A DNA stretch of 64,000 nt. Origin: an uncultured virus (IMG/VR IMGVR_UViG_3300025769_011517). Taxonomy: Duplodnaviria; Heunggongvirae; Uroviricota; Caudoviricetes. This document shows positions 26,502 to 61,279 of this stretch, piece after piece; position 1 is the first letter of the stretch, and every line of letters starts with the position of its first letter. The translations under genes were made by a program, and so were the position numbers. The notes beneath the pieces are model-generated. The model had not been told where the DNA came from. It worked only from the letters and a program-made list of their open reading frames with translations, and did no database searches. The DNA lies in the IMG/VR virus record IMGVR_UViG_3300025769_011517, one strand, 5' to 3'.

Positions 26502-29500
26502 CTAAAGTCCAACGTTACTCTGGCGTTGAGGCATACCTCTGTAATTGCCAAACAAAACTAGGTCCATAAGTTCTTCTCCGGTATAATCTGTTTCCATTAA
26601 CCAGCCGTACCGTTCTAAGAACATCTCCTGAGATCGCTTCCACCCATCGCTATCAAGGTTACCGTGCGCACCAACAATATCGCCAATTACCTTTTCCATA
26701 TCTTCCGCACTCTGAGCCGCCCGCAATCTTTCAAGGGCACGATCAAACGATGCCGCAACAGCGGCCCGATCAGATGCTGAAGCAGCTGCAAGTTGACTAT
26801 AAAGATCGCCACTTAAACGGGGACCTCTGCTATTAGCGGCACGAGCAGCAAATTGTTCTTCAGGGCTAAGTCTTACGAGGTCACCCGTCCGTGGATCACG
26901 GTACTCAACCCCAAAGAAGTCATTATCAGTCCCATCTTCTCCGTCACGGCCACCCAAAGTCAGGCCCATGTCAATAGGAACAAGTCTAACATTTCCGTCA
27001 CGATCCGTGTACTGAAGCCAGTTGCTACCATGCCTATCACTGTTAAACAACAAAGCGTCACCCAGCATCATGTGAGTTGCATCGTCTAGAGTGTTCTCAT
27101 TAGAGAAATCATACTGTCCCGGGTTCCGTCTACCTATCATAATATCGGTAGCGCCTTCAGGAAGGTAATTCTGCAAAGCCTCACCCATCAAGCCACGAGC
27201 GGGGTTAATAGCAGGATCATCCCACGGGTCTCGGTTAGCAGCGTTTGGATTTGCAGGCCCATCTAACCTCATCTGCCCTTGAACAAAGCCCAGACGAATC
27301 ATCAACGCACGGCCAACTAGTTCGTTACCGTCTTCGTCACGACCATATGAACGCCCATCATTAAACTTAATCATAAATATCTGACCAGTAGCAGTATCTA
27401 CTATAAGCTGCGCACCATTTATTGCATTACCTCTGTTATTGACACCCCCACCGTCATCCATGCCCATCCCAGGAACCAACATTTCAAACCTTGCATTTGG
27501 TTCACGGTCGTCACGTCGCAAGACACGGTTTTGTTCATCACGAATCGCTTGCCCATGTCTATACCCTGAACCGTTCTGACCGTACAAACGATCAACTACT
27601 CCCACAAGCCGCTGTAAGTCATTATCAGACAAACGAGTAACATCAAAAGGCAAATCATCCAAAGACTCTTCAACCAACTCTTCAAGCATCTCATTTGAAT
27701 ACTGACCTAAACGGTCTTCTCCAATATCAGACACCGCCAGAACCACAGGATTAAGGAACTCATCAGGAACACCAGAAACATCATTATTACCATCTCTCAT
27801 CCACTCAGCACCTTGATCAACAGACTCAATACCATTCGCCCCCACAGGAACCGCTGGAAGCGGACGCTGCTCGCCCCTATCAAAGTTCGGGTCTAATTTC
27901 TGATTCGGTCTGGCGTCGCTCTGACGAGGAGGAGGAGTAGGTCCTGAAGGTACCGAAGGAATCGAAGGAATCGACGGCTCTGGAGGACGATCATAAGGAT
28001 CAATCAAATCAGGTGTTACCTGACGTGGATCGCCGTCAGCATCACTCAAAATATCTGTAATATCCCAAGTACCGTCACTGAACGTGGTGCCCCTAAACGG
28101 GTTGGGAAGCGTCAAACCTGCTAGCTCAGGGTCATCAGCAAGCAACTGATCAACCATATCTCCATCTAAAGCACCAATATTGTTAGCGGGGTCGTCACCG
28201 ACGTTTCTACCGATGTAAACTCCACCGCCTCTAAACATCTGGAACGCAACAGAGTTTCTAATACCCTCGCCTTCCAACGCCAACATGAAATCATGCATGT
28301 CTGGCAGTTCATTAATTTCTCTAGCATCCATGGAAGCCAGCACCCGTACTGGGTCATCAACGTTCAATAAAGGCTCAACCATAGCCTCAATACGTTCAGC
28401 CCTCACATCATCCTGAATAAGAGCCTTTGCGGCACGCTGCTTCAACGTAGGTTCAATACCTGTACGTTTCGCTTCTTTATAGCCATTGTAATCTTTCAAA
28501 ACCTCAACCATACCCTCGTTAAGGTTCCTAATATGGTTAGGATTATCATCTCTAAACCCAATGCGAGGCCAAACAACCCGGCCATCATCAACAGCACCAA
28601 CCTTAACTTTGCTAACACCCATATTTCTATAGAACAACAAGTTGTTGTTAAACATCTCTTCAGTGAAACCGCCACCGGCAAACGAAATGTCTTGTCCCTC
28701 AAACTGTATAACACGGCTCGTACCTAACAAATTATGCTTAACCTTACCGTCACCTTGCGCATCCCAAGTGATGGTACGAGACATTCTGCCTAGCCGGAAC
28801 CCTCCATCGTTTTCGGAATAAGTTTCTTCAGCAACAACATTACCATCAGAATCTAATAGTTGGAATTTCATACTAGACTGAACATCAATCTGCAGAATAT
28901 CTCCACGAGGGCCGTCACGAGAAATGAAAACACCATCGCCACGGCCATCAGTCGTGGGAATAATCTGCTTCGTGTACGTCTTACCATTAATCTCTACAGA
29001 CCCAACCTGAACCGGCTGATCCGTATCCAACAAGAACGCATCTCTGATTCGTGATTCAACTTGCGCATCAGTCATCGCACTCAGGCCATCACGCCCGCCA
29101 ATATCCCACGGCTGCGTTTCCCTATCACCATAACGACGCTCAGCAATGTCTTTAATCTTCTGCTCACGCTTCTGCTGACGCTGCCGTCTAGCTTTGAGGA
29201 AGTTCCATCTACCCACCTTACGCCATCTATCAGACAACTGCGGCTTGTTATCAACAGCGTCTCCAAGATTCGCCCGAGCCGACGCAACCGCACGACCATC
29301 AAGAAGCTCCTCACGTAAAGTAAGAAGACCATTTTCGTCTATGATGTTTGGGTCCATGTTGTCAAGACGTTCTTGAACATACTCTAAATGACGATCAATA
29401 GCCTCAACTGACCTTTCATTCAGAGGAAGGTTTCTTTCAAAACTTCTATCTCCTCTGATCCGCATTGCACGGTTCCAAGATCGCATCAGATCATCTTTCT

Positions 29501-32500
29501 GACTGTCAGAAAGATTCGTGCTGTTTAGAATGCGTTCTCTATACCGCAACATTTCATTAGTTGAAGCTTCTGCCAGCATAAGTTCGTTTCTCAGCATAGC
29601 TTTCGCACCGGGTATCTTATCAGCATTCATATTATCTTCAAACATTGCGTCTCTAAGTCTCACCCTTACAGCGGCATCGCCCTGCCGAGGCTGATCCACA
29701 AGGTCAGGAGTAACACTACCCAGGTTCCTAAGTCTTCTAGCTTCTACCTCACTCTGAAGTCTATTAATCAAAGCATCTAATTCATCAACATCTCTACCCA
29801 GCGTGTCAAGACCCCAAGCTTTGCTGTTTTGTAAGTGCTCTATGTGTGCTTCCAAAGCTTCATCGGAACGATCCTGCAAATCTCTGTCCAACTGGAAACG
29901 GTTAATGTTTCCACGCCTAGCACGCTCACGGTCCATAGCGTCACTTAAGTAGTCAAAATACCGTTGAACATCATCTTCAGAAAGGCCATTAGCGTCACGC
30001 TGAGCCGCAAAAGCCAATAACGAACCATACTCACGTTCGAAACGCCCAAACTCTTCAGGAGACATATTTTCTAAGTACCCCTGTAATCTCACGCCCGCAG
30101 GATCAGCATCTGCTGCATCAATAACAGCATCAAACCGCTCACGGCTAGTCATTCCTTCCGTAAACTCGAAAGGACCCCCTGAAGGAATGCCGCCTCTGTC
30201 AGCATCAGCACGACGCTGATCAGCAGCACGCAACCGGTCAGCCTGCTCTGCAGCCGCTCTAGACGGAGGACGGCCCGCATTGCCTGCACGCAAACGGGCT
30301 TGCCGGAGTGCACGATCACGAGGACTCATATCATCCAGCATCGCATCATCCATGTTCGCCATGCGTCGTGCCAGATCATCCACATCGCCGTCGTTAATAT
30401 TTAACAAATCAGCATATCTGGCTTTTAATGCTGCTCTTAAGCTAGGATCAACGACTTCGCCAGCGCCGACTCTAGCGTCAAACATGTCTAACAAGTCTCC
30501 AGCAGAATACAAATCAAGATCAGAAAGGAAGCGATCTGGGTCAGCGTCATACCTATTAAGCGCATCATCATAATCAGGATCAACCCGGTTAAATATAATA
30601 TCAACCTCTGGTTCGTCAACTACCCGATTAGCTGAAGGGGCACCATCAACAAGGAACTCAAAGTCTGGATCAATTCGAGAAAGAGCCGCATCTGGGTTAT
30701 CACGCAAATTCATAATACCTTCACGGCGATTTAGGGCAAGATATGGCAGATACTCTTTCAAAACATCTAAATCACGAGCCGCACGAGCAGCAGTATCATT
30801 TGCATCAAAACTTTCTTCTTCACGAACAAACCGTAGACCATCAACCATTTGGTTCAACTCACGGAACGCTTGAAGTCGTAACGTAAGTAGGCGAGCACCG
30901 GCCTGAGGGAAGTCCTCCTCCTCTATCCTCCTACGAACTGCCGCTTCAAGATCAGCAACATTCCAACCATCCTGAAGAGGACCAACCTCATTGAGAATCA
31001 ATTGCAGAACTTCTTGATGCTCACGAACAGCCGCACCCGCCACGTTATCAATCTGCTCAGGAGTCAGATTATCAAGCTCAGGCATGTTTACAGGGTCTCT
31101 CCGGCCCTGAGTATTAAAGCCTGGGTCATTTCTGTATTCCGGCAGACGCTGCGGCCTGTTAGACGCAGACCCAGGAACATTCACACCTAAACGATTCGGG
31201 TCTCTTGTACCATCCTCAAGAGCATTATACTCGGCTCTGATCGCTCGCCAGTTGCGCAGATTGCCAGCGTTTATGTTTTCTCTCGCCATCTCGCCGGTAA
31301 TATTATCCAGACGAACCAAGTCATCATCAGAAATACGTTGAAGATTGAAAGGAAAATCATCGCCAGCCTCAATCAACGCCCTAAGCTCATCATCACTAAA
31401 CCGATCAAGAACATCAGGATCATTCGGATCAGGCGGCTCCGGCGCACCACCGGCACCAGCATTAGGATCAGTAGGATCACTAGGACGAAGACGACGATTA
31501 ACCTCACGGCCACGATCATTCAAATTGCCATCAGCATCATAGTAACCACCAAAACGCCTATCCAACTCAGCAGCATCAGTACCGTTATAATCATCATCAC
31601 GCCAATAAGCACGACCCGGCAAACCATTACGTGGGAACCTATTATTTACATTCCGCAACGAACGGCTATCAGGGTCAGATCGGGACCCCGGATCAAAAGC
31701 AGCCTGCTGCAGTCTACGACGATCACGCTCCGCCGCAAGACGGCCAATAAGTTCCTCAAGGTCTTCTAACCCCTCACGGCCTTCAGCTGCGTAAAGGTCC
31801 GATAGCCGCAGATGAGCATTAAAGAAAACGTCAAGTTCGTCATCACTCAAAGTCTCTAACATGTTTTGAGTCATGCCGCCGCCAGAAACCTTAAAGTCTG
31901 CAGCCCGCTTCTCGAACTCGGCAATAACCGCAAACAAATCAGCGTTTTCGTCTAGATCAAACTTATCCTTAATGTTGTTTTCTTCCGACTCAATACGAGG
32001 ACGCTTACCTGGGCCTTGGAAACGACGATCAAACTCGTTATCCATACGCTTCAGCAACTCTTGCAAGTTTCCGATTTCATCAGCCGGAACCGCATTAGCA
32101 TCTATAGCATCACGGACAGCACGCCGATACTTAATCAAATCATCATCAGAAATAGCATTAAAGAAGTCAAGAGTCATGCCGCCGCCAGCAACCCTGTAAC
32201 GCTCCATATGCGCTTCCATCTCAGCAAGGACCCGTTGATAATCTTCAGGTTTAATCTCTGAGGCAGGCACCTTGTTTAGGCGGTCACGACGATCTCGTTC
32301 ATCCGCTAAGCGGGCAGCAATCTTCATAAACGCATTATCACGCTGCGCTACCTCAGGGAACTGAATAATCGCTTGATCAAATACGTCTTGGAAGAAAGCG
32401 ACTTCGTCGTCATTAAGAAGTTGAATGAATTCTACAGTCATAGCGTCTCTAGCGTTATATTCCTCAGCTAGATCATAAAAATGCTGAATTGCTTCCGCCA

Positions 32501-35500
32501 TGCCCTCTTCAGTTTCAAGATCAAAACGATCTCGCAAGTTAGCATTAACAAGACTACGGCTTCTGTTGCGGCGATCTCTTTCAGCCCGTAAACGCTCCAA
32601 AGCCGCACGAATATCATCAAACTGTGGGTTGTCAGCCATAGCCTCAGCAGCAGTTTCAAACGCATTGATGTATTTATCTAAATCGTCATCATCTAGTGAC
32701 TCAACAAAATCTAGGGTTCTGCCGCCACCAGAAACTCTGTATTCTTCAGCCCGCTCACGGAACTCTTGAAGAATTCGTGCAAACTCGTCCATTATTTTTT
32801 CAGGATCGTCAGCATCATCAGCAGGGGTATAAGTTATTGTCTGAGGATTATACGGGTCAATATTTCTACGGCGAAGCTCAGCGTTGATTTCACGAAGCCT
32901 ACGTCTATCCATTTCTTCGTCACGCTGACCCGGAATGAGAAGCCCCGGGCTACCATGCCGTAATCTGAAGAATTCTCTAACTAGCTCTCCATCAGTCATC
33001 TCCCCAACAGGTTTGGGCTGAAGCGCCTCTGGAATATCATCAGGATCAGGAGTGCGGCCATCAGGAGTACGACCATCAGGAGCACGACTATCAGGACCAT
33101 CACCCGGCACACCCGGCGCTCTAGGACGACGAGGACCGCCACCACCAGGGCCACCCGGCACACCCTCATCACCCGGAACAACATCCCGATCACGACGACC
33201 AGCACGCTCACGCTCAAAGTCTTCATTCCAAAGACCCAAGAAACGCAAAATCAACTCTCTCAAGAAACCAAGAATACCATCCTGCCGACTCCGCTGCTCA
33301 GGAGTACGAGGAGGATTATCAGACAAGCGACCAGCCTCAGTATTCGCAGCCTTCTCAACAGCCTTATACGCCTTACGAATCTCATCCAAATTAGCGTTAG
33401 CCAAATCCTGATCATTCATAACATCACGAAGATTCTTAAGCGCCGCCTCCAAAGCCTCACCCTCAAGCAACTGACGCTCTTCAGGAGTCAAATCAACATC
33501 ACGCTGAGCCTCACCAAGCGTGCGACCCAACTTACCGCCTTCAACACCCTCAGTCTTCTCAAACACCCTACCCAAATCACCAGTAGCAGCATCAAGAGTA
33601 CGAATAGCATCATCAAGCTTCTCCGCCGTCTCAGGCTTCAAATTGCTTCGACCATCACCCGGACTCGTGTCCAACCGGCGACGACGCCGCCTCTCCATAG
33701 CGTCTTCAAGACGAGTACCCAAATCAACAAGGTTATTAACAATCTGACGTGGAAGAGAATAACCACAGTTGCTAGCAAACTGATTAGAGAACCGACCGCC
33801 ATAACGAGTGCCAGGAGGACAACGATATCTACCCAAGTTACCATCAAACACCGCACGGCTACGGCCACCAACAGCACGACCACCACGCCCGATCCGGCGA
33901 CCCAAACCACGACCTCTAGGAGCCTTAAAATCAATCTCAGTCAAAGACGTAAACGCTTCAATCTTACTATTGACAGACATGTGATAGTACTTTGCATCAA
34001 GCACATCAGTAAAGTCAGTAGCAACCGGTGCTGACTTCTGAGAGAAAGCAAACGGTGAACCACTCTTCTCTTCCGCACCTTCCTCAGCAACAATCTCATA
34101 AATCGGAGCATCTTTTGCACGACGTGGCGCAGAACGAGACAAGAACGTTTCATAAACCCAACGAGGCACTGTTTCAGTCTTGCCGCCAGCCGTAGAGACC
34201 TTAATCAAATCGTTCTTGCCCTCAGCGATCGCAAAGCCGGTCTCGGTCACTTCACCAAACTCAACAGTAAACCGGCCATCAGAACCGTCAGCCCACGCAC
34301 GAACAGCAGCAGAAGGATCAGGCAAATCAGCGCTTCGGCTTATGCCAGTAGCAAACGAACGAAGAAGCCCTGCCCGTTCCGCATCAGAAATTTCTCCCCC
34401 AACACGACTGATTTTAACAGCGCCAGCATCAGGGATAGAAACAAACACGTTACGCAAATTCGTGCTAAACGCAGGAACAGTAGAAGCACCAATCTGACCT
34501 GCCTCATATCTTTCAATAAGGCTACCGTCAGCCATGTCATCAAACTCGTTAAGTTTACCAAGCGCTTCAACTGAAACAACAGGTTCTAAAATGACACCAT
34601 CACGGCGAACAACTTTAGTTGGGAAATCTTCTTGCTCATAACGTGTCAACACCAAATCAATAGATGTTTCTGCCCGGGTCGGGCTACCTTTCTTCGGGGC
34701 AGCCGGAATCTGAGCTGCACGAATAATATCTACAGCACTGTCGTTGTTGCGAAGATCACCAATTTCATTAACTAAACCTGCAGTGTTCGCCAAACGAGAA
34801 AGTCTATTGTTTGCCTCGGGGGTGGGCGAACCCGGACCCGAAGTAGCAATCCCCAAAATCTGGGCACCACACGTCGAAAACTCGGAGTTAGTGAACGTAC
34901 CACCCTTCTCAAAGCCTGGAGGACAACGGAACTTATTACGAGCACCACGACCTCTGCTTCGCAGGATACGACCACCACGAGCATTAGGAATATTCGGAAC
35001 GCCAGGAGTCAGCGTTTCATAAATCTGAGAACGGATAGGGCTACGAATATCAGACAAATCGCCCGGAAGAATAATACTGCCCGCAGCCTGCGCAGCCTGA
35101 CCCAAACGGCTAGAAGAACCAAACACACCAACACGCTTAACCTCGTTACCAGCAAACAAAGGCAGCCGCTCCGAATGCTGCAAGAACATCGCAGCCTTCA
35201 TCTCCACAGCATTCTTACGACCAGCAATAGGCTGAACAAGAATACCACCAAACTCACGAGACTCACGAATCGTCATACGCAACGAAGTAACTTCAGTTAA
35301 CGGTGAAATACCAGTCAAAGACTTCTTGCCCGCAGACCGAACACGACGAGTCACCGAACGACCACGACGCTTCCGCTTACCCTTACCTCTACCACGCTTA
35401 CCCTTGCCCTCGTTGGGCCACTTGCCAGTCAACTCGTGGTGAAGCCAAGCACAAATACGCTGAGGCTTACCACCAAACTGCGGCTTATCCATAAGGATAA

Positions 35501-35657
35501 CAACACAACGACGGAAGCCACCCGGCTTCTTCATAATCGGACGCCAATACTTGAGAAGGTCCTCAAGATTGCCACGACGAGGACCACGCCCTCGTGTAAG
35601 GCTGGTCAAAGCATCGGCGTTTGGCCCAATCTCAGGTGCTTTAAACTCAATCGTCAT
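26502..35657 (-). CDS. Giant (3051 aa) polyvalent head-module protein with GNAT-like and C-terminal HipA/PI3K-like kinase domains
   Basis: Two RCPPG..GG.F....CG motifs; helical repeats; GGGF..YRNMGVSKVKVGAVDDGRVVWPRIGF; IFMIK..ELVG..DALLFNSDRHGSNW..PIDMG. Confidence 0.7.
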   Translation of the reverse strand: MTIEFKAPEIGPNADALTSLTRGRGPRRGNLEDLLKYWRPIMKKPGGFRRCVVILMDKPQFGGKPQRICAWLHHELTGKWPNEGKGKRGRGKGKRKRRGRSVTRRVRSAGKKSLTGISPLTEVTSLRMTIRESREFGGILVQPIAGRKNAVEMKAAMFLQHSERLPLFAGNEVKRVGVFGSSSRLGQAAQAAGSIILPGDLSDIRSPIRSQIYETLTPGVPNIPNARGGRILRSRGRGARNKFRCPPGFEKGGTFTNSEFSTCGAQILGIATSGPGSPTPEANNRLSRLANTAGLVNEIGDLRNNDSAVDIIRAAQIPAAPKKGSPTRAETSIDLVLTRYEQEDFPTKVVRRDGVILEPVVSVEALGKLNEFDDMADGSLIERYEAGQIGASTVPAFSTNLRNVFVSIPDAGAVKISRVGGEISDAERAGLLRSFATGISRSADLPDPSAAVRAWADGSDGRFTVEFGEVTETGFAIAEGKNDLIKVSTAGGKTETVPRWVYETFLSRSAPRRAKDAPIYEIVAEEGAEEKSGSPFAFSQKSAPVATDFTDVLDAKYYHMSVNSKIEAFTSLTEIDFKAPRGRGLGRRIGRGGRAVGGRSRAVFDGNLGRYRCPPGTRYGGRFSNQFASNCGYSLPRQIVNNLVDLGTRLEDAMERRRRRRLDTSPGDGRSNLKPETAEKLDDAIRTLDAATGDLGRVFEKTEGVEGGKLGRTLGEAQRDVDLTPEERQLLEGEALEAALKNLRDVMNDQDLANANLDEIRKAYKAVEKAANTEAGRLSDNPPRTPEQRSRQDGILGFLRELILRFLGLWNEDFERERAGRRDRDVVPGDEGVPGGPGGGGPRRPRAPGVPGDGPDSRAPDGRTPDGRTPDPDDIPEALQPKPVGEMTDGELVREFFRLRHGSPGLLIPGQRDEEMDRRRLREINAELRRRNIDPYNPQTITYTPADDADDPEKIMDEFARILQEFRERAEEYRVSGGGRTLDFVESLDDDDLDKYINAFETAAEAMADNPQFDDIRAALERLRAERDRRNRSRSLVNANLRDRFDLETEEGMAEAIQHFYDLAEEYNARDAMTVEFIQLLNDDEVAFFQDVFDQAIIQFPEVAQRDNAFMKIAARLADERDRRDRLNKVPASEIKPEDYQRVLAEMEAHMERYRVAGGGMTLDFFNAISDDDLIKYRRAVRDAIDANAVPADEIGNLQELLKRMDNEFDRRFQGPGKRPRIESEENNIKDKFDLDENADLFAVIAEFEKRAADFKVSGGGMTQNMLETLSDDELDVFFNAHLRLSDLYAAEGREGLEDLEELIGRLAAERDRRRLQQAAFDPGSRSDPDSRSLRNVNNRFPRNGLPGRAYWRDDDYNGTDAAELDRRFGGYYDADGNLNDRGREVNRRLRPSDPTDPNAGAGGAPEPPDPNDPDVLDRFSDDELRALIEAGDDFPFNLQRISDDDLVRLDNITGEMARENINAGNLRNWRAIRAEYNALEDGTRDPNRLGVNVPGSASNRPQRLPEYRNDPGFNTQGRRDPVNMPELDNLTPEQIDNVAGAAVREHQEVLQLILNEVGPLQDGWNVADLEAAVRRRIEEEDFPQAGARLLTLRLQAFRELNQMVDGLRFVREEESFDANDTAARAARDLDVLKEYLPYLALNRREGIMNLRDNPDAALSRIDPDFEFLVDGAPSANRVVDEPEVDIIFNRVDPDYDDALNRYDADPDRFLSDLDLYSAGDLLDMFDARVGAGEVVDPSLRAALKARYADLLNINDGDVDDLARRMANMDDAMLDDMSPRDRALRQARLRAGNAGRPPSRAAAEQADRLRAADQRRADADRGGIPSGGPFEFTEGMTSRERFDAVIDAADADPAGVRLQGYLENMSPEEFGRFEREYGSLLAFAAQRDANGLSEDDVQRYFDYLSDAMDRERARRGNINRFQLDRDLQDRSDEALEAHIEHLQNSKAWGLDTLGRDVDELDALINRLQSEVEARRLRNLGSVTPDLVDQPRQGDAAVRVRLRDAMFEDNMNADKIPGAKAMLRNELMLAEASTNEMLRYRERILNSTNLSDSQKDDLMRSWNRAMRIRGDRSFERNLPLNERSVEAIDRHLEYVQERLDNMDPNIIDENGLLTLREELLDGRAVASARANLGDAVDNKPQLSDRWRKVGRWNFLKARRQRQQKREQKIKDIAERRYGDRETQPWDIGGRDGLSAMTDAQVESRIRDAFLLDTDQPVQVGSVEINGKTYTKQIIPTTDGRGDGVFISRDGPRGDILQIDVQSSMKFQLLDSDGNVVAEETYSENDGGFRLGRMSRTITWDAQGDGKVKHNLLGTSRVIQFEGQDISFAGGGFTEEMFNNNLLFYRNMGVSKVKVGAVDDGRVVWPRIGFRDDNPNHIRNLNEGMVEVLKDYNGYKEAKRTGIEPTLKQRAAKALIQDDVRAERIEAMVEPLLNVDDPVRVLASMDAREINELPDMHDFMLALEGEGIRNSVAFQMFRGGGVYIGRNVGDDPANNIGALDGDMVDQLLADDPELAGLTLPNPFRGTTFSDGTWDITDILSDADGDPRQVTPDLIDPYDRPPEPSIPSIPSVPSGPTPPPRQSDARPNQKLDPNFDRGEQRPLPAVPVGANGIESVDQGAEWMRDGNNDVSGVPDEFLNPVVLAVSDIGEDRLGQYSNEMLEELVEESLDDLPFDVTRLSDNDLQRLVGVVDRLYGQNGSGYRHGQAIRDEQNRVLRRDDREPNARFEMLVPGMGMDDGGGVNNRGNAINGAQLIVDTATGQIFMIKFNDGRSYGRDEDGNELVGRALMIRLGFVQGQMRLDGPANPNAANRDPWDDPAINPARGLMGEALQNYLPEGATDIMIGRRNPGQYDFSNENTLDDATHMMLGDALLFNSDRHGSNWLQYTDRDGNVRLVPIDMGLTLGGRDGEDGTDNDFFGVEYRDPRTGDLVRLSPEEQFAARAANSRGPRLSGDLYSQLAAASASDRAAVAASFDRALERLRAAQSAEDMEKVIGDIVGAHGNLDSDGWKRSQEMFLERYGWLMETDYTGEELMDLVLFGNYRGMPQRQSNVGL

Positions 35658-41933: not shown

Positions 41934-41974
41934 AGGTATACTTTACCGTGAAAACCTCTAGGAGACAAGCAGAT

Positions 41975-43291
41975 ATGTCAGTGCAAACTCAGGATTGGGA
42001 AAAAATTAGAGAGTATCTAGAGCCACGGCGTTCAGAATACTGGGTTGAAGAACCCTCACTAACTCAGAAAGTATTCCTAAAATCCGTGGGACAAGAAGTC
42101 ATGTTTGGTGGTGCAGCAGGCGGTGGTAAGTCTTCCGCCCTAATCATGGCTGCCTTACAGTACGTAGATGTCCCAGGTTACAGTGCAATCCTATTCAGGC
42201 GTACATACGCTGACCTTGCACTACCCGGCGCTCTCATGGACCGTTTCCGAGACTGGATTATGCAATACGACGACGTTCATTGGAACGCCAACCAGTACAC
42301 CGCAACATTTCCATCCGGCGCTAGAATCACCTTCGGGTACCTAAACAACGTAAACGACTACCTTAGATACAAAGGTTCGGAATTCCAATTCATTGGCATG
42401 GACGAGGTTACAGAAATTCGAGAGTCTGACTACCGATACATGTTCTCTCGTTTACGTCGTCCCGCCACAGGACCTCTTTCAGAAGTGCCACTACGAATGA
42501 GATGTGCTACAAACCCCGCCCCCAACTGGGTCCGACAACGATTCCTCGTAGAAGGTGAAAAGAGCGGAAGAATCTTTATTCCTTCCATGCTCACCGACAA
42601 CCCCGGAATTGATCCTGACTCTTACCGGGCCATGCTTCAAGAGCTAGACCCTATTGAAAGAAACCGTCTTGAATTTGGTGACTGGTGGGCAACCACACTC
42701 GGCTCAATGTTTGACCGAAACAATTTGGAAGTCATTGAATTTACAGAAATCCCTTCTTTCAGCAAAGAAACAGAGATTGTGCGCTTCTGGGACTTGGCAG
42801 GTACGGAGCCTACTGCAAGCAACCCTGATCCTGACTGGACAGTAGGATGCTTGGCGGCGTTTGAAAACGGTGTGTTTTATATTTTGGATGTTCGAAGAAT
42901 CAGGGCCAAGGGCGACCGTGTAGAGAAATTTGTTCGAGACACCGCAATTGAAGATGGGCCGGAAGTTCCAATTCAAATGGAGCAAGAGCCGGGGTCAGCA
43001 GGCAAAAACCTTATTGATCAGTACGCCCGTTATGTTCTACCCGGATACGACTTCAAAGGTCAAAGAGCAACCGGTGATAAAGTAACTAGAGCCAAACCTT
43101 TTGCCGCAGCAGTAGCTAACGGAAACGTAAGGCTTGTCCGGGCTGACTGGAACAGCGACTTTATTGACGAGCTTTCGTCTTTCCCTGAAGCCCGAGTTCA
43201 CGATGACCAAGTCGATGCCGCAGTTCATGCCTTCAACACCTGTGCCGGATTAGGCATGGGACTACGGCGTAAGATTGAAATAATTATTTAA
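41975..43291 (+). CDS. terL: Terminase large subunit
   Basis: Walker A FGGAAGGGKS, Walker B FIGMDE, ATNP, RFWDLA, HDDQVDA; start MSVQT with GGAG RBS. Confidence 0.95.
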   Translation: MSVQTQDWEKIREYLEPRRSEYWVEEPSLTQKVFLKSVGQEVMFGGAAGGGKSSALIMAALQYVDVPGYSAILFRRTYADLALPGALMDRFRDWIMQYDDVHWNANQYTATFPSGARITFGYLNNVNDYLRYKGSEFQFIGMDEVTEIRESDYRYMFSRLRRPATGPLSEVPLRMRCATNPAPNWVRQRFLVEGEKSGRIFIPSMLTDNPGIDPDSYRAMLQELDPIERNRLEFGDWWATTLGSMFDRNNLEVIEFTEIPSFSKETEIVRFWDLAGTEPTASNPDPDWTVGCLAAFENGVFYILDVRRIRAKGDRVEKFVRDTAIEDGPEVPIQMEQEPGSAGKNLIDQYARYVLPGYDFKGQRATGDKVTRAKPFAAAVANGNVRLVRADWNSDFIDELSSFPEARVHDDQVDAAVHAFNTCAGLGMGLRRKIEIII

Positions 43292-53325: not shown

Positions 53326-53714
53326 GCCTCATCATCTAGTAAACGCTTCAACGCAGACTCAAAACTGACCTCATCAGGATCATTTGAGTACACAAATATA
53401 ACATCATTCAATATTGCATCAAGCTCCTTAGCCAACAACTTGATCGCCATCTCCCGCACATCCGCAGGCTCATCAGAATCATAACGTTCTCTTACCGTGG
53501 ATGCTATCTCAGAAGCAATCGCTTCATCCACATAGTCATCTAAATACTCTTGCGCCACAACAATCTGCATCTCTTTCTTTTTCCACATTACCAGATCGTA
53601 GTCTTTATCATTAATAGCACCACGTGGAGCAGTCAAGAACGTGACCTCAATCTGCCCACGTTTAACAACTGCTAACACATCACTGTCAAACTCATCAGCC
53701 CAATCATAAATCAT
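53322..53714 (-). CDS. Hypothetical acidic protein
   Basis: 130-aa ORF coupled to whiB. Confidence 0.6.
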   Translation of the reverse strand: MIYDWADEFDSDVLAVVKRGQIEVTFLTAPRGAINDKDYDLVMWKKKEMQIVVAQEYLDDYVDEAIASEIASTVRERYDSDEPADVREMAIKLLAKELDAILNDVIFVYSNDPDEVSFESALKRLLDDEA

Positions 53715-53935
53715 GAATTAACTAACCTGTCCAACTCTGGCCCGGTCTTACCACCCCACACACCAATCGTGATTTTATTCGTGACTGCAAAATCTAAGCA
53801 CTTAGCAGAAGCGGTACAACCTGCACAAACCTTAACGGCGCTCTTGCGTTGCGACGGCTTGCTCGAAAAAAACGTTCGGTCATTACCCCGACACGGCGCA
53901 CTCTCAAACCACTCAGGGCTAGAAAGTTTAATCAT
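53711..53935 (-). CDS. whiB: WhiB-family transcription factor
   Basis: W..APC..FF..AVKVCAGCTASAKCLDFA..GVWGG: four Cys plus GVWGG. Confidence 0.92.
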   Translation of the reverse strand: MIKLSSPEWFESAPCRGNDRTFFSSKPSQRKSAVKVCAGCTASAKCLDFAVTNKITIGVWGGKTGPELDRLVNS

Positions 53936-54013: not shown

Positions 54014-54042
54014 TTGACCTGCGCCGTCGAAGCCAGTAGCAT
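54014..54042 (+). promoter_or_regulatory. Sigma-A-type promoter upstream of the structured non-coding region
   Basis: TTGACC-17 nt-TAGCAT. Confidence 0.7.
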
Positions 54043-54083
54043 ACTCACAAACTACTACACAAGGAGCACACTGCCACAAGACT

Positions 54084-54481
54084 GCAGCCGGGTAATCCCG
54101 ATGACATAAACGTTCACTGAAGGACCGGTGGGTTACACTCGTTACGCAACTGGTACTAACACTTAAGAAACAAGAGGGCACGCCTGCCCAAAGAGGAACG
54201 ATCTGAATCGCACGATAAACTGGACACACATCCTTGACGAGATGCCAGTCACTGCACGGAGAACATCAAGCCTTGAGGAACAGGTTCGGAACAAGCAAAC
54301 GCCCATGCGGTTCCGGCACACGGGCTACTAGAGCCATATCTAGGGAGAGTGGGCATCGCTGAAAAAGATAGGCGGTGCTTGGGGTCCATGAAGTGAACAG
54401 CCTTGAATAAACCAATTGGGTTCGTCCCAGCCTCTCGTGCGTTAGCGTCAACTACCACACGAAAGGGAGGGAAAACGCTGC
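54084..54481 (+). ncRNA. Candidate large structured non-coding RNA (about 400 nt)
   Basis: No credible ORF; terminal pairing gcagc/gctgc; long-range gttcact/agtgaac and ggacc/ggtcc; at least 8 local stems; own promoter. Confidence 0.5.
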
Positions 54482-54503
54482 CAAAAACGAGTAGGATAAA
54501 CGC

Positions 54504-55037
54504 ATGTATGAAAACATCAAACTAGAATGGCAACAACACACTTTACAGCCCCTAAAGGGCAAGCCAGTCATGGAAGTTTTGCTTCGTGGACTTGAGTTTT
54601 TAGATGACTACTGGCTGTCTGCAGGAACGTTGCTGGGGCTAGAAAGAGACAACGAGTTCATTCCCCATGACACCGATCTAGACATTGCTGTTATGGGTTA
54701 CTGGGATAAAGCACGACTACCAGAAGAAGAGTTCTTTGCAGGAAGAGTTGTCAGTGATGGCGACAGGCCGATGCAAGCAGCGTATGTACATAAGGACACA
54801 AACATAGTTTTTGACGTGCTTCATTGGTGGCCGCACCCAACAGATACTGAACTTTTAATAAATATTAAAGAAGACGGTCATCTAATCAGACCAAAGCACC
54901 TAGTCTCTCCCCTATCAACCAAAAATTATTTAGGTCACGAATTTAGCGTGCCTAACGATATTGATGGTTATTTAACTGATTGGTATGACACGTGGCGCAT
55001 CCCTCAAAGAGGAGGCAAGACTAAATGGCTAAAGTAG
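54504..55037 (+). CDS. LicD-family nucleotidyl/phosphotransferase
   Basis: YWLSAGTLLGLERDNEFIPHDTDLDIAV..FSVPNDIDGYLTDWYDTWRIP. Confidence 0.88.
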   Translation: MYENIKLEWQQHTLQPLKGKPVMEVLLRGLEFLDDYWLSAGTLLGLERDNEFIPHDTDLDIAVMGYWDKARLPEEEFFAGRVVSDGDRPMQAAYVHKDTNIVFDVLHWWPHPTDTELLINIKEDGHLIRPKHLVSPLSTKNYLGHEFSVPNDIDGYLTDWYDTWRIPQRGGKTKWLK

Positions 55038-56905: not shown

Positions 56906-57880
56906 ATGGATAAAGATAAACTTCTCGAAGATGCTCTAGGACAAATTGAAAAGCAGTTTGGCGCTGGAAGCATCATGCGTCTAGGCGACGCTGCTTCAAT
57001 GCAAATTGAAACGATTTCAACCGGCTCTATCGCTCTTGACTTGGCGCTAGGGGTTGGAGGTGTTCCTCGTGGACGAGTCACCGAAATCTACGGACCTGAG
57101 TCTTCTGGCAAGACAACCATTGCCCTGCATGTGATTGCAGAAGCCCAAAAGAAAGGTGGCAAGTGTGCATTCATTGATGCGGAGCACGCCCTAGACCCTG
57201 TGTATGCTAAAGCAATCGGATGCGACATTGACAATCTTTTGGTTGCACAGCCAGACACAGGTGAGCAAGCCCTGACCATTACTAACAAGCTGATTGAATC
57301 AGGCGCTCTAGACGTAGTAGTTGTAGACTCAGTTGCTGCGCTCACTCCTCGTGCCGAGATTGAAGGCGAAATGGGAGACAGCCACGTTGGCCTGCACGCT
57401 CGTCTGATGTCGCAGGCGATGCGAAAGATTGTAGCTAACCTTAATCACTCTAAGACAACCCTTATCATGATTAACCAGTTGCGTGAAAAAATTGGTGTCA
57501 TGTTCGGTTCTCCTGAAGTAACCACTGGCGGCAAGGCACTCAAGTTCTATGCGTCAGTTCGGATGGACATTCGTCGTATCGAAACGCTGAAGGACGGTGG
57601 CGAAGCATCTGGCAATAAGACACGAGTCAAGGTTGTCAAGAACAAGTGTGCTCCTCCTTTCCGTCAGGCAGAGTTTGAAATTGCATACGGTGAAGGAATC
57701 AGCCGTACCGGAGACATCGTGGACATTGCTGCTGAGATGGGTATCCTTGACAAGAAGGGCGCATGGTACGCCTACAAAGGCGAGAACATTGGACAGGGCC
57801 GTGCCAATACCAAAGCTTTCTTGGATGAAAACGAGCAAATCCGAGAGACAATCGCAGATACCATCTACGCAACAATTTGA
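56906..57880 (+). CDS. recA: Recombinase RecA
   Basis: [66 protein letters not shown]. Confidence 0.98.
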
Positions 57881-59120: not shown

Positions 59121-61196
59121 TCACCGAGACCTTCTTCTAGAATTACCCTTTTTACCTTTACCTCCACCGGAGTCGCCTCCGGGGCCTCCTCCTCCGCCAC
59201 CACCGGAAGGACCGCCACCGCCGCCACCGGCAGGACCAGCAGATGTCGCAGCAGTGGCTACAGTCACGGCTGCGGCGGCAGCAACAACAGTACGACGAGT
59301 TTCTGTATCAACCACAGAACCCTCAGCGATGTATTCATTGAAAGCCTCGTCGTCAAAGATATCTACAGTCTCTTCAAACTCTGCCTTAACTTCGTCGTCC
59401 GCTTCGTTAACGGCAGCGACGAGAACAACTTTGGCATCGTCAGAGATGTTGTCAAAGTTTTCGTCAGTCACAAGGCTTTTGATTTCTTCCGTGGTGATTT
59501 CACCGTCAACGACATTCAAGAAATCTTCCGCAAGTTCCTCATCAAGCTCGTCTAGTTGTTCCACAACTTTGACTTCTGCTTCATCAACCTCAAGCAATTC
59601 AACGCCTTGAGTATCAATACCGAGTTCCTCAAACTCCACTTTAGTTTCAGCGGCTTTTTCTTCTTCAGGTGTCGGTGGAATGGTCGTTATTACCGGCAGC
59701 GTCGTCGTTGTCGTCGTTGGCGGCAGCGTTGTTGTCGTGCTTGTTGTAGTTGTAGTACTTGTTGTTGAAGAAGTAGTCGTAGTTGGGGTTACCGTAGTCG
59801 TCGTAGGCGGTAGGGTTGTAGTCGTTGATGTTGTCGTCGTAGTGGTAGATGGCGGTGCCTCCGTCGTTGTAGTTGTAGGCGCTACCGTCGTCGTAGTTGT
59901 AGGCGGCAACGTCGTTGTTGTCGTTACAGGTATTGTAGTGGTTGTGGTCGTGGTTGGAGGCAAGGTCGTAGTAGTTGTTGTCGTCGTGGTCGTCGTTGTG
60001 GTCGGGGGAACGGTGGTTGTCGTCGTGGTAGTCGGAGGAGTACCTTCTGAAACTTGAATTTCCATCGTCTCTCCAACATGACAATCGTTCTCAGAACCGC
60101 AAGCAAGAATGTTAAAGAACCACGTCGCACTACCTAGGTCATCATAAGCAACCGTGTGAGAAGTCGAAGAAATGGTTTGAGTATAAGTAATGTTAGACTC
60201 ATCTATTTCCCACGGATTACCAAGTTGGTTCCAAGCGATCTTGTAATGCGCAGGATCGACAAAACCGTCACTAGAAGCATCCCAACTAAATGTGATGTCG
60301 CCAGTAGCGTCATCCCGTTCGTAAGTCTGGTTGTCAACTATGTCGGGCATATTCATGATGGAGATGGAGGCAACAGATGTCCAATTAGAGTACAAAGCGT
60401 TAGTGTCGTTATCCGAGCGAACATTAACGTTGAACAAACCGTGTGCTTCGTTGAACAACTGCTCTATGTAAGAAGCGTTGAACGTATACTCGGTAACGAG
60501 AGCGTTCTCATCTCCAACGTTACCAGTAGCAACGCCATACGGTCCAGCGTTCCCGTCGTCATTCAGACCAAACCCAATAGCGTAACGTTCTGGATCAACG
60601 TTTCCGTCAGTTGGTGCATCCCAATCAGCCTTCACCGTACCGTTGTAGTAGTCAACGGTTAAAGTCAAATTGGTAGGATCGCCTATAGTTTGAGGAATTG
60701 TCGTCGTGGTCGTTGTGGTGGTTGTAGTGGTTGTGGTCGTGGTTGTGGGTATACTGTCTGAAGTTAAAGACAGATCAGCAACTATTTCATAGTCATAACC
60801 AGACGGGTTCGAACCCAAGCCACGCAAACTGCAGCAATAGCCAGCCCTAATTCTGTAATCTCCAGCATTTAGGGTGGTATAAATCTTTGACGAAACACAC
60901 TGATCAGCGAAGTTGTGGTTACCGTCGTCGTTTTGCGCAACTAACGCTCCAGTAGATTCGGGACCGTCTTCGTATACCCATAAATAGGGGTCTGCGCCGG
61001 GTTCTGAGCATGACCTGTTTGAATTACCATAGATAATGACTTGAGTCCCGTCATTATCAATTGAAAAGTACCAGTCAGATTCTTCGGTGACTGTGTATGT
61101 GGCGGCGGCTGCAGGTACAGGAGAAAACCACGCTAAAGCAAAAACCCACACAAGAGAAGCTTTAGCTGCACGCCTAAAATGTCTACCTCGACTCAT
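59121..61196 (-). CDS. Exported Thr-rich (mucin-like) surface protein with FN3-like domains
   Basis: Signal-peptide-like N-terminus ending PAAAA; DPYLWVY..QNDDG domain; two FN3-like domains; poly-Thr tracts; C-terminal Ala/Val segment, Gly run and basic tail. Confidence 0.75.
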   Translation of the reverse strand: MSRGRHFRRAAKASLVWVFALAWFSPVPAAAATYTVTEESDWYFSIDNDGTQVIIYGNSNRSCSEPGADPYLWVYEDGPESTGALVAQNDDGNHNFADQCVSSKIYTTLNAGDYRIRAGYCCSLRGLGSNPSGYDYEIVADLSLTSDSIPTTTTTTTTTTTTTTTTIPQTIGDPTNLTLTVDYYNGTVKADWDAPTDGNVDPERYAIGFGLNDDGNAGPYGVATGNVGDENALVTEYTFNASYIEQLFNEAHGLFNVNVRSDNDTNALYSNWTSVASISIMNMPDIVDNQTYERDDATGDITFSWDASSDGFVDPAHYKIAWNQLGNPWEIDESNITYTQTISSTSHTVAYDDLGSATWFFNILACGSENDCHVGETMEIQVSEGTPPTTTTTTTVPPTTTTTTTTTTTTTLPPTTTTTTTIPVTTTTTLPPTTTTTVAPTTTTTEAPPSTTTTTTSTTTTLPPTTTTVTPTTTTSSTTSTTTTTSTTTTLPPTTTTTTLPVITTIPPTPEEEKAAETKVEFEELGIDTQGVELLEVDEAEVKVVEQLDELDEELAEDFLNVVDGEITTEEIKSLVTDENFDNISDDAKVVLVAAVNEADDEVKAEFEETVDIFDDEAFNEYIAEGSVVDTETRRTVVAAAAAVTVATAATSAGPAGGGGGGPSGGGGGGGPGGDSGGGKGKKGNSRRRSR

Positions 61197-61279
61197 AATA
61201 TCTCCACAAAACAGCACTTAACATTTATTGTACAAGGAAAGCCCTTGCTTGATTTGCGGAAAGTGGTATAATACCAAGT

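Follow-up and report, generated by a model that had tools for sequence, protein, structure and literature searches.

What does the gene-free gap beside whiB in this phage genome encode? The window (the whole stretch of DNA analysed here, 64,000 nucleotides) derives from a contractile-tailed phage, as sheath, major head protein, portal and terminase genes were found, and the gap is its largest ORF-free stretch, 486 nt versus 252 nt for the next one, when short internal ORFs are set aside. The original prediction, made from the letters alone, had placed here a large, independently promoted, uncatalogued phage non-coding RNA (ncRNA). Its reading of the gap as the largest was correct, all the strings that it quoted lie where it had put them, and its central proposal is supported by covariation, strand asymmetry and changing neighbours. 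By comparison of homologues, the gap is a separately promoted gene for a predicted structured ncRNA, whose transcription we infer; that a structured RNA exists at this locus is, in our judgement, very nearly certain.

The locus and its homologues

A sigma-70-type promoter, TTGACC-17-TAGCAT, was matched by scan at 54014..54042 on the plus strand, as originally read, with a putative start site near 54049. The TTG-17-TAnnnT type is kept in 49 of the 53 homologues with a full 5′ flank, the remaining four having a spacer of 18 nt as read from alignments, and the same promoter type is repeated along three related phage records. The predicted ncRNA, ∼440 nt, would extend from 54049 to 54486 on the plus strand, both ends being putative; the limit first proposed for the 3′ end fell ∼5 nt short, as a conserved tail reaches ∼54486. 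Short ORFs inside the gap are not conserved among homologues, and core lengths are spread 18/19/18 over the three frames, which argues that the locus is non-coding.

The usual upstream neighbour is the divergent whiB (53711..53935, minus strand, PF02467). In the lineage L015, L016 and L117, whiB is not adjacent (∼1.2 kb away in L015), and the RNA and its promoter are intact. Downstream lies a lineage-specific LicD-family gene (54504..55037, plus strand, PF04991), probably leaderless, although most homologues have a different gene at this position. Besides LicD, the RNA may be followed by recA, a methyltransferase gene, a tRNA or a gene in convergent orientation, and we counted the convergent arrangement in 15 of 57 cores. 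Because the downstream neighbours change and are sometimes convergent, the RNA appears to be independent of them rather than a leader. One lineage carries a tRNA-Arg(UCU) gene directly 3′ of the RNA (L035:5760-5833); no tRNA was found in the window by ARAGORN.

Homologues were collected by protein-anchored and motif scans, which gave 148 loci with a profile match and 57 distinct cores, all belonging to one myovirus clade; a 58th distinct core turned up in a later motif search. The alignment comprised 55 cores, after removal of a truncated core and of another that contains a duplicated stretch, and had a median identity of 75% (minimum 63%), with 143 of 385 core positions invariant, many of them in junctions. 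Of 39 loci with a RecA identity of 83% or more, 34 contain the RNA and the other five stop short of whiB; the RNA was found in none of the 41 loci with RecA 56–68% identical. Over 22 loci, DNA identity was 75.1% for the RNA, versus 74.5% for recA and 57.7% for whiB. Pairwise identities of the RNA follow those of recA (rho 0.72), although the two trees have only some well-supported splits in common. As judged from this distribution, the predicted RNA is a core gene of the whole phage clade.

Wider searches kept to the same limits. Two further motifs brought in only the same clade (43/43 and 47/87 loci, the other 40 being without model support), and matches of one motif in gut phages were dismissed as chance, lying antisense within a coding gene. 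A pattern scan of genome contigs for the RNA gave no match, cultured phages gave nothing beyond chance 23-nt matches, and neither a paralogue nor a remote match was found in the 52 sequence sources searched. Two domain models found none in 151 genomes sampled from the presumed host class (the class of an Ilumatobacteraceae genome), under stricter filters and with no positive control among those genomes. Across the whole window, Rfam cmscan gave no match that reached gathering level, and around the locus it gave one chance match (E 5). The putative RNA family is uncatalogued and confined to one phage clade.

The phage host is probably an Acidimicrobiia bacterium, because the best cellular RecA matches among the matches listed (68–71% identical) are mostly from Acidimicrobiales and because genes for a sigma-70 factor and a second WhiB occur in a related record. 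These two genes lie in one cluster with genes for an Fe-S biosynthesis protein and Hsp20 (L373:8825-12592), the sigma-70 factor having regions 1.2, 2 and 4. Several contigs with matching loci bear TARA-prefixed names, which suggests a sea-water habitat.

Several other features of these genomes were recorded. Many phage genes, with recA among them, have their ATG 6–7 nt past TAnnnT and so look leaderless; this was seen at 56906-57880 of the window and at many sites in three related records (G001, G003 and G004). The terminase large subunit gene (41948-43291) stands on the plus strand, alone inside a minus-strand block of head genes, and the same arrangement is seen in G003. That block contains a 3051-aa ORF (26502-35657) whose sole family match is one short PHROG hit, and the 698-aa protein encoded at 59121-61217 contains long repeats rich in Thr and Pro and matches no PHROG. 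In two related phage records, at L371:10130-10250 (plus strand) and in L377 near 3960 (minus strand), a promoter is followed by the same 13-nt word with hairpin-forming sequence behind it; this may represent another conserved small RNA or a leader, and the word is absent from the window and from G001.

Covariation and the fold of the RNA

Folding energy, one of the checks proposed with the original prediction, did not single out the locus. The window sequence has an MFE of −124.1 (z −0.46), 32 of 100 shuffles fold as well, and z ranged from +0.22 to −2.04 for 14 homologues folded against shuffles. As single-sequence folding is no better than chance, the case stands on the comparison of homologues, and here the covariation check among the 57 distinct homologues gave a positive answer. 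A fold model of 77 pairs scored on 45 sequences has 97.6% of its cells paired and 45 of 77 pairs changed on both sides, figures that lean in favour of the model since it was built from the same sequences. None of 500 shuffles reaches these values, and slid controls are 32–42% paired.

In a tree-aware count, 25 of 68,265 column pairs showed at least two independent compensatory events together with at least 90% pairing; 20 of these 25 fall in the model, including all nine with at least three events. RNAalifold yielded 72 pairs, 38 with two-sided change, and its result is in agreement with mutual information and the tree-aware count. G·U cells are commoner than A·C cells (285 versus 21), a strand asymmetry that points to a plus-strand RNA. 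The aligned homologues show a conserved, knotted fold of the predicted RNA on the plus strand.

All elements described below are given on that strand. The P1 hairpin (54089..54100) is 100% paired, with two-sided change in 3/4 pairs, and is followed by an invariant AUGACAUA linker (54101..54108) that reads Met-Thr-stop in 54/55. The core is closed by the long-range helix P2 (54112-17/54393-98 and 54123-26/54383-86), where 8/10 pairs show two-sided change. A second long-range helix, P3 (54136-40/54347-51), is new; it is 100% paired, exchanges U-A, A-U and G-C, and was obtained independently by RNAalifold. A linker of variable length (54156..54175, from the alignment of homologues) contains an extra duplicated stretch of ∼38 nt in one otherwise intact homologue (L024:6046-6585).

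Within the core, a pseudoknot joins 54176-79 with 54301-04 in the P8 loop (54176..54304). It is 100% paired, changes from G-C to A-U in 10/45 with two independent events, and replaced an earlier candidate partner, 54322-25, on tree-aware covariation. The P5–P7 arm (54182..54285), whose closing helix 54182-86/54281-85 is also new, is supported by covariation and RNAalifold and comprises the helices 54182-86/54281-85, 54188-89/54277-78, 54193-96/54271-74 and 54200-02/54265-67. The internal loop between the 54188-89 and 54193-96 helices is kink-turn-like; its strands are found in 55/55, and the arm ends in an apical hairpin (54219-49). The P8 hairpin (54287..54315) is 100% paired, with two-sided change in 3/8 pairs. 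The P9 hairpin (54328..54343) shows four independent U-A/C-G swaps, with an invariant AGAGCCA run across its stem and loop. The P10 hairpin (54352..54379), supported by covariation, has a conserved UGAA-A-rich loop.

A kissing loop pairs 54235-38 with 54447-50; all four pairs change on both sides, 93% of cells are paired and eight compensatory events were counted on the tree. Its 3′ strand is borne by a long imperfect hairpin (54420..54476), the inner part of which covaries and the outer part of which is present in the MFE fold of 44/45 distinct sequences; an arm-swap control of this hairpin was weak (own versus foreign arms, −9.6 versus −9.2). This long hairpin took the place of a T-arm-like one considered earlier at 54418-28. 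The 3′ tail (54479-85) is conserved in 55/56, and a third knot is predicted between 54152-55 and 54479-82, 94–100% paired in 53 sequences with mostly one-sided changes; 54152-55 is the best predicted partner, not a certain one, 54379-82 and 54416-19 being other possible partners. A conserved downstream ‘MPK' mini-ORF probably results from the tail pairing. Four CACG motifs (54211, 54255, 54319 and 54458; 54211..54461) are invariant in the alignment. CACG is the sole 4-mer invariant four times, and only this invariance is unusual, as cores contain 5–7 copies and 0.6–6% of other 385-nt windows reach that number.

The original prediction had thus drawn part of this structure. Its long helix (54112-26/54383-98) and five of its local stems (54089-100, 54219-49, 54328-43, 54351-80 and 54431-70) covary. 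Four of its pairings are not supported: gggca/tgccc (54176-89) and cgat/atcg (54199-210) are each 79% paired with no two-sided change, tggg/ccca (54417-29) is 77% paired with one two-sided pair, and the end helix gcagc/gctgc is possible in 6/54. The long-range knots had been missed.

The leader, a possible mechanism and rival readings

Upstream of P1 lies a Shine-Dalgarno (SD) element with no start codon, AAGGAG (54061..54066, plus strand). AGGAG is present in 53/53 homologues, placed 13–19 nt behind the −10 element in the 49 with a matched promoter, while the flanking sequence is only 45–47% identical. A start codon (ATG, GTG or TTG) 3–11 nt past AGGAG is found in one of the 53, compared with a start codon behind 88 of the 172 AAGGAG sites that three related phage records contain. 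In two Acidimicrobiales genomes the 3′ end of the 16S rRNA is complementary to AGGAG, for which no conserved internal pairing partner was found in the RNA. AGGAG is followed by an unstructured A/C-rich spacer (54067..54087, plus strand; 78% A+C) that measures 16–21 nt in all homologues and folds below −0.5 kcal/mol in 5/54. This is about the length covered by the mRNA channel of a 30S subunit.

A model that joins these features can be outlined. RNA polymerase would transcribe ∼440 nt from the sigma-70-type promoter, and the RNA would fold into a compact multi-junction core locked by the pseudoknot, the kissing loop and probably the third knot with the 3′ tail. A 30S subunit would dock on the start-less AGGAG, with the 16–21-nt A/C spacer in its mRNA channel, and would shield the 5′ end from RNase J, so that the RNA accumulates during infection. 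TIGR00649, the RNase J family, matches 5/5 host-like genomes, four of them above cut-off. The 30S step is modelled on the STAB-SD stabilizer of cry3A mRNA, in which, according to the part of PMC4113751 consulted, an SD-like sequence near the 5′ end directs no initiation and the bound 30S blocks RNase J1. The leader described here likewise has an SD-like site near its 5′ end without a start codon; STAB-SD shields an mRNA, whereas here the element heads a putative ncRNA and 30S docking is conjectural.

Acting in trans, the folded body would serve as a decoy or scaffold, a role that has been proposed for ROOL and GOLLD. This step is suggested because of the analogy to the intermolecular kissing loop of ROOL; the kissing loop may join neighbouring copies of the RNA, and the motifs that are both single-stranded and invariant (the CACG motif at its four sites, AUGACAUA and AGAGCCA) may be contact surfaces for the RNA itself or for a host factor. 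A family scan of one related record, which took in 98 of ∼129 predicted proteins, identified no partner protein or target. Taken as a whole, this chain of a transcribed knotted RNA, stabilized by 30S through a start-less SD and acting as a scaffold or decoy in trans, is one that we hold tentatively, at somewhat less than an even chance. A bolder version, in which an RNA machine docks on the ribosome through the start-less SD and its triple-knotted core is catalytic or an RNA-only modulator of translation, we consider unlikely.

Other readings of the same evidence were weighed. The invariance of 143 of 385 core positions would also suit a new ribozyme class, in which invariant junction residues are brought together by the nested knots to form an active site that processes some RNA in trans. 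RNase P type A (RF00010) shares size and high invariance with the RNA, and the helix order (tail knot, a 4-bp loop knot before a long arm, a hairpin between closing helix and tail) echoes it, the order of the two long-range knots resembling the type A topology. Unlike RNase P, the RNA has no end-joining helix, has the extra P3 and P10, and conserves neither the catalytic signature, with its P4 regions, nor the GAGGAAAGUC-type element of host-like RNase P RNAs. RF00010 missed 12/12 phage records at E≤10 while 11/14 controls were positive, the RNA profile did not match five host-like RNase P RNAs, the group I intron model (RF00028) matched 0/12 records, the flanks of the RNA being separate genes, and no substrate is evident. 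We judge a ribozyme to be quite improbable. The Met-Thr-stop linker raises the thought of a ribosome trap, in which the 5′ SD loads 30S, the invariant AUG-ACA-UAA behind P1 serves as a two-codon minigene or stalls initiation, and contacts of the folded body with the ribosome redirect translation. In its favour, the SD-to-AUG spacing is held at 30–35 nt in 53/53, and GOLLD pulled down ribosomes, as cited in the part of PMC12286853 consulted. Against it, looping out P1 still leaves this spacing too long, one of 55 homologues has lost the stop, synonymous or stop-to-stop changes are lacking, and no invariant run of at least 6 nt is complementary to host-like 16S rRNA. We give this trap little credence.

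At the 3′ end, a triplet one base or less from AUG stands at a fixed place in 54/56, and the purine run before it pairs with the anti-SD at −8 to −13 kcal/mol in 50/53, as a riboswitch-like cis leader would have it if the kissing loop and tail pairing hid a purine-rich site and start-like triplet (54466-54480). The ORFs behind the triplet are short (mostly 4–30 codons) and bear no relation to one another, different real genes come next and many of them are convergent, and tail pairing and the 3′ hairpin account for the same letters, which makes such a leader very unlikely. About as unlikely is a replication-origin element, as a primer or R-loop RNA or as a DNA site. The divergent transcription switch at which the RNA lies is close to recA, Rad52-like and PD-(D/E)XK genes, and in one record the cumulative AT skew reaches its minimum at the locus. 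Against this, cumulative GC-skew extremes lie at or near contig ends and not at the locus in 3/3 records, the alignment shows no iteron array, and the long-range knots and G·U bias point to selection at the RNA level. A remodelled tmRNA minus its tRNA-like end was suggested by eye, from the similar size and a long closing helix followed by words like the pk1 region of Acidimicrobiales tmRNA. ARAGORN made no call, RF00023 was off the locus in 5/5 records, the RNA profile did not match host-like tmRNA, the would-be pk1 strand covaries instead with 54347-51, and the pk1 P3 pair is 69% paired at its variable pair. Unlike tmRNA, the RNA has no acceptor stem, T-arm or tag frame, and its knots are nested rather than serial. 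Covariation and models together largely refute this derivation, which we regard as extremely improbable. The original prediction had recognized no hallmarks of tmRNA, RNase P or group I/II introns, and the models of tmRNA, RNase P and group I introns all miss the locus. The preferred reading is still the knotted RNA with a 30S-stabilized leader.

Known large RNAs and the meaning of the find

The closest likenesses are to ROOL and GOLLD. ROOL (RF03087) is likewise large, phage-borne and stand-alone, with multiple pseudoknots, a linker of variable length and a kissing loop that covaries; its model has 574 positions versus ∼440 nt here, and unlike ROOL the RNA is not in a tRNA island, belongs to one phage clade only and has a start-less SD at its 5′ end. 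GOLLD (RF02032), which also occurs in marine samples, is likewise an ornate RNA of phages, with a different helix order; the RNA lacks a tRNA array. ROOL and GOLLD often lie by tRNA islands, and a single tRNA adjoins the RNA in 2/34 RecA loci. No similarity to either was found by sequence or by model: the ROOL model matched 0/5 records at E≤10, a search in which the positive controls were silent too, and the model of the conserved 3′ domain of GOLLD matched 0/5 at the same threshold. The raiA model (RF03072) found nothing at the locus and one weak match (E 0.14) elsewhere in 1/12 records; Ms1 and 6S RNAs gave no Rfam match and are rod-like, versus a branched and knotted fold here. As far as the consulted part of the cryo-EM study PMC12286853 goes, the ROOL kissing loop was found first by covariation and proved intermolecular, and GOLLD is cited there as binding ribosomes in pull-downs. 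ROOL and GOLLD form RNA-only oligomeric cages through intermolecular kissing loops; the present RNA has a covarying kissing loop, which may act within or between molecules. It may act like ROOL or GOLLD, yet it is a member of neither.

Among titles and abstract openings, with few subscription journals covered, searches directed at this RNA or its phages found no description of the RNA, and the accessible portion of 10.64898/2026.09.22.753630 does not mention whiB. The Fremin 2023 candidates are at most 151 nt in the portion of PMC10690425 available; five motifs of the RNA are absent from its readable tables, and its alignments may hold fragments of the RNA. One of its candidates, DNAVirus_8169 (47 nt, mostly freshwater, ≤25 bp from whiB), is a misfit by size and position, as compared by description only. 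What is new here, at the level of prediction, is the kissing loop, the pseudoknot, two long-range helices, the tail, the four CACG motifs and the start-less SD.

Only a small number of large, highly structured RNAs are known from bacteria and phages, some of them without an assigned function. The RNA adds a compact example of ∼440 nt, whose fold, backed by covariation, can now be taken to probing and cryo-EM. Its leader gives the predicted RNA a testable link to the ribosome: toeprinting and half-life measurements would be a direct and cheap test of whether ornate phage RNAs engage the ribosome. A ribosome-docked RNA machine, if true, would represent a new functional class of large ncRNA, not another cage-former.
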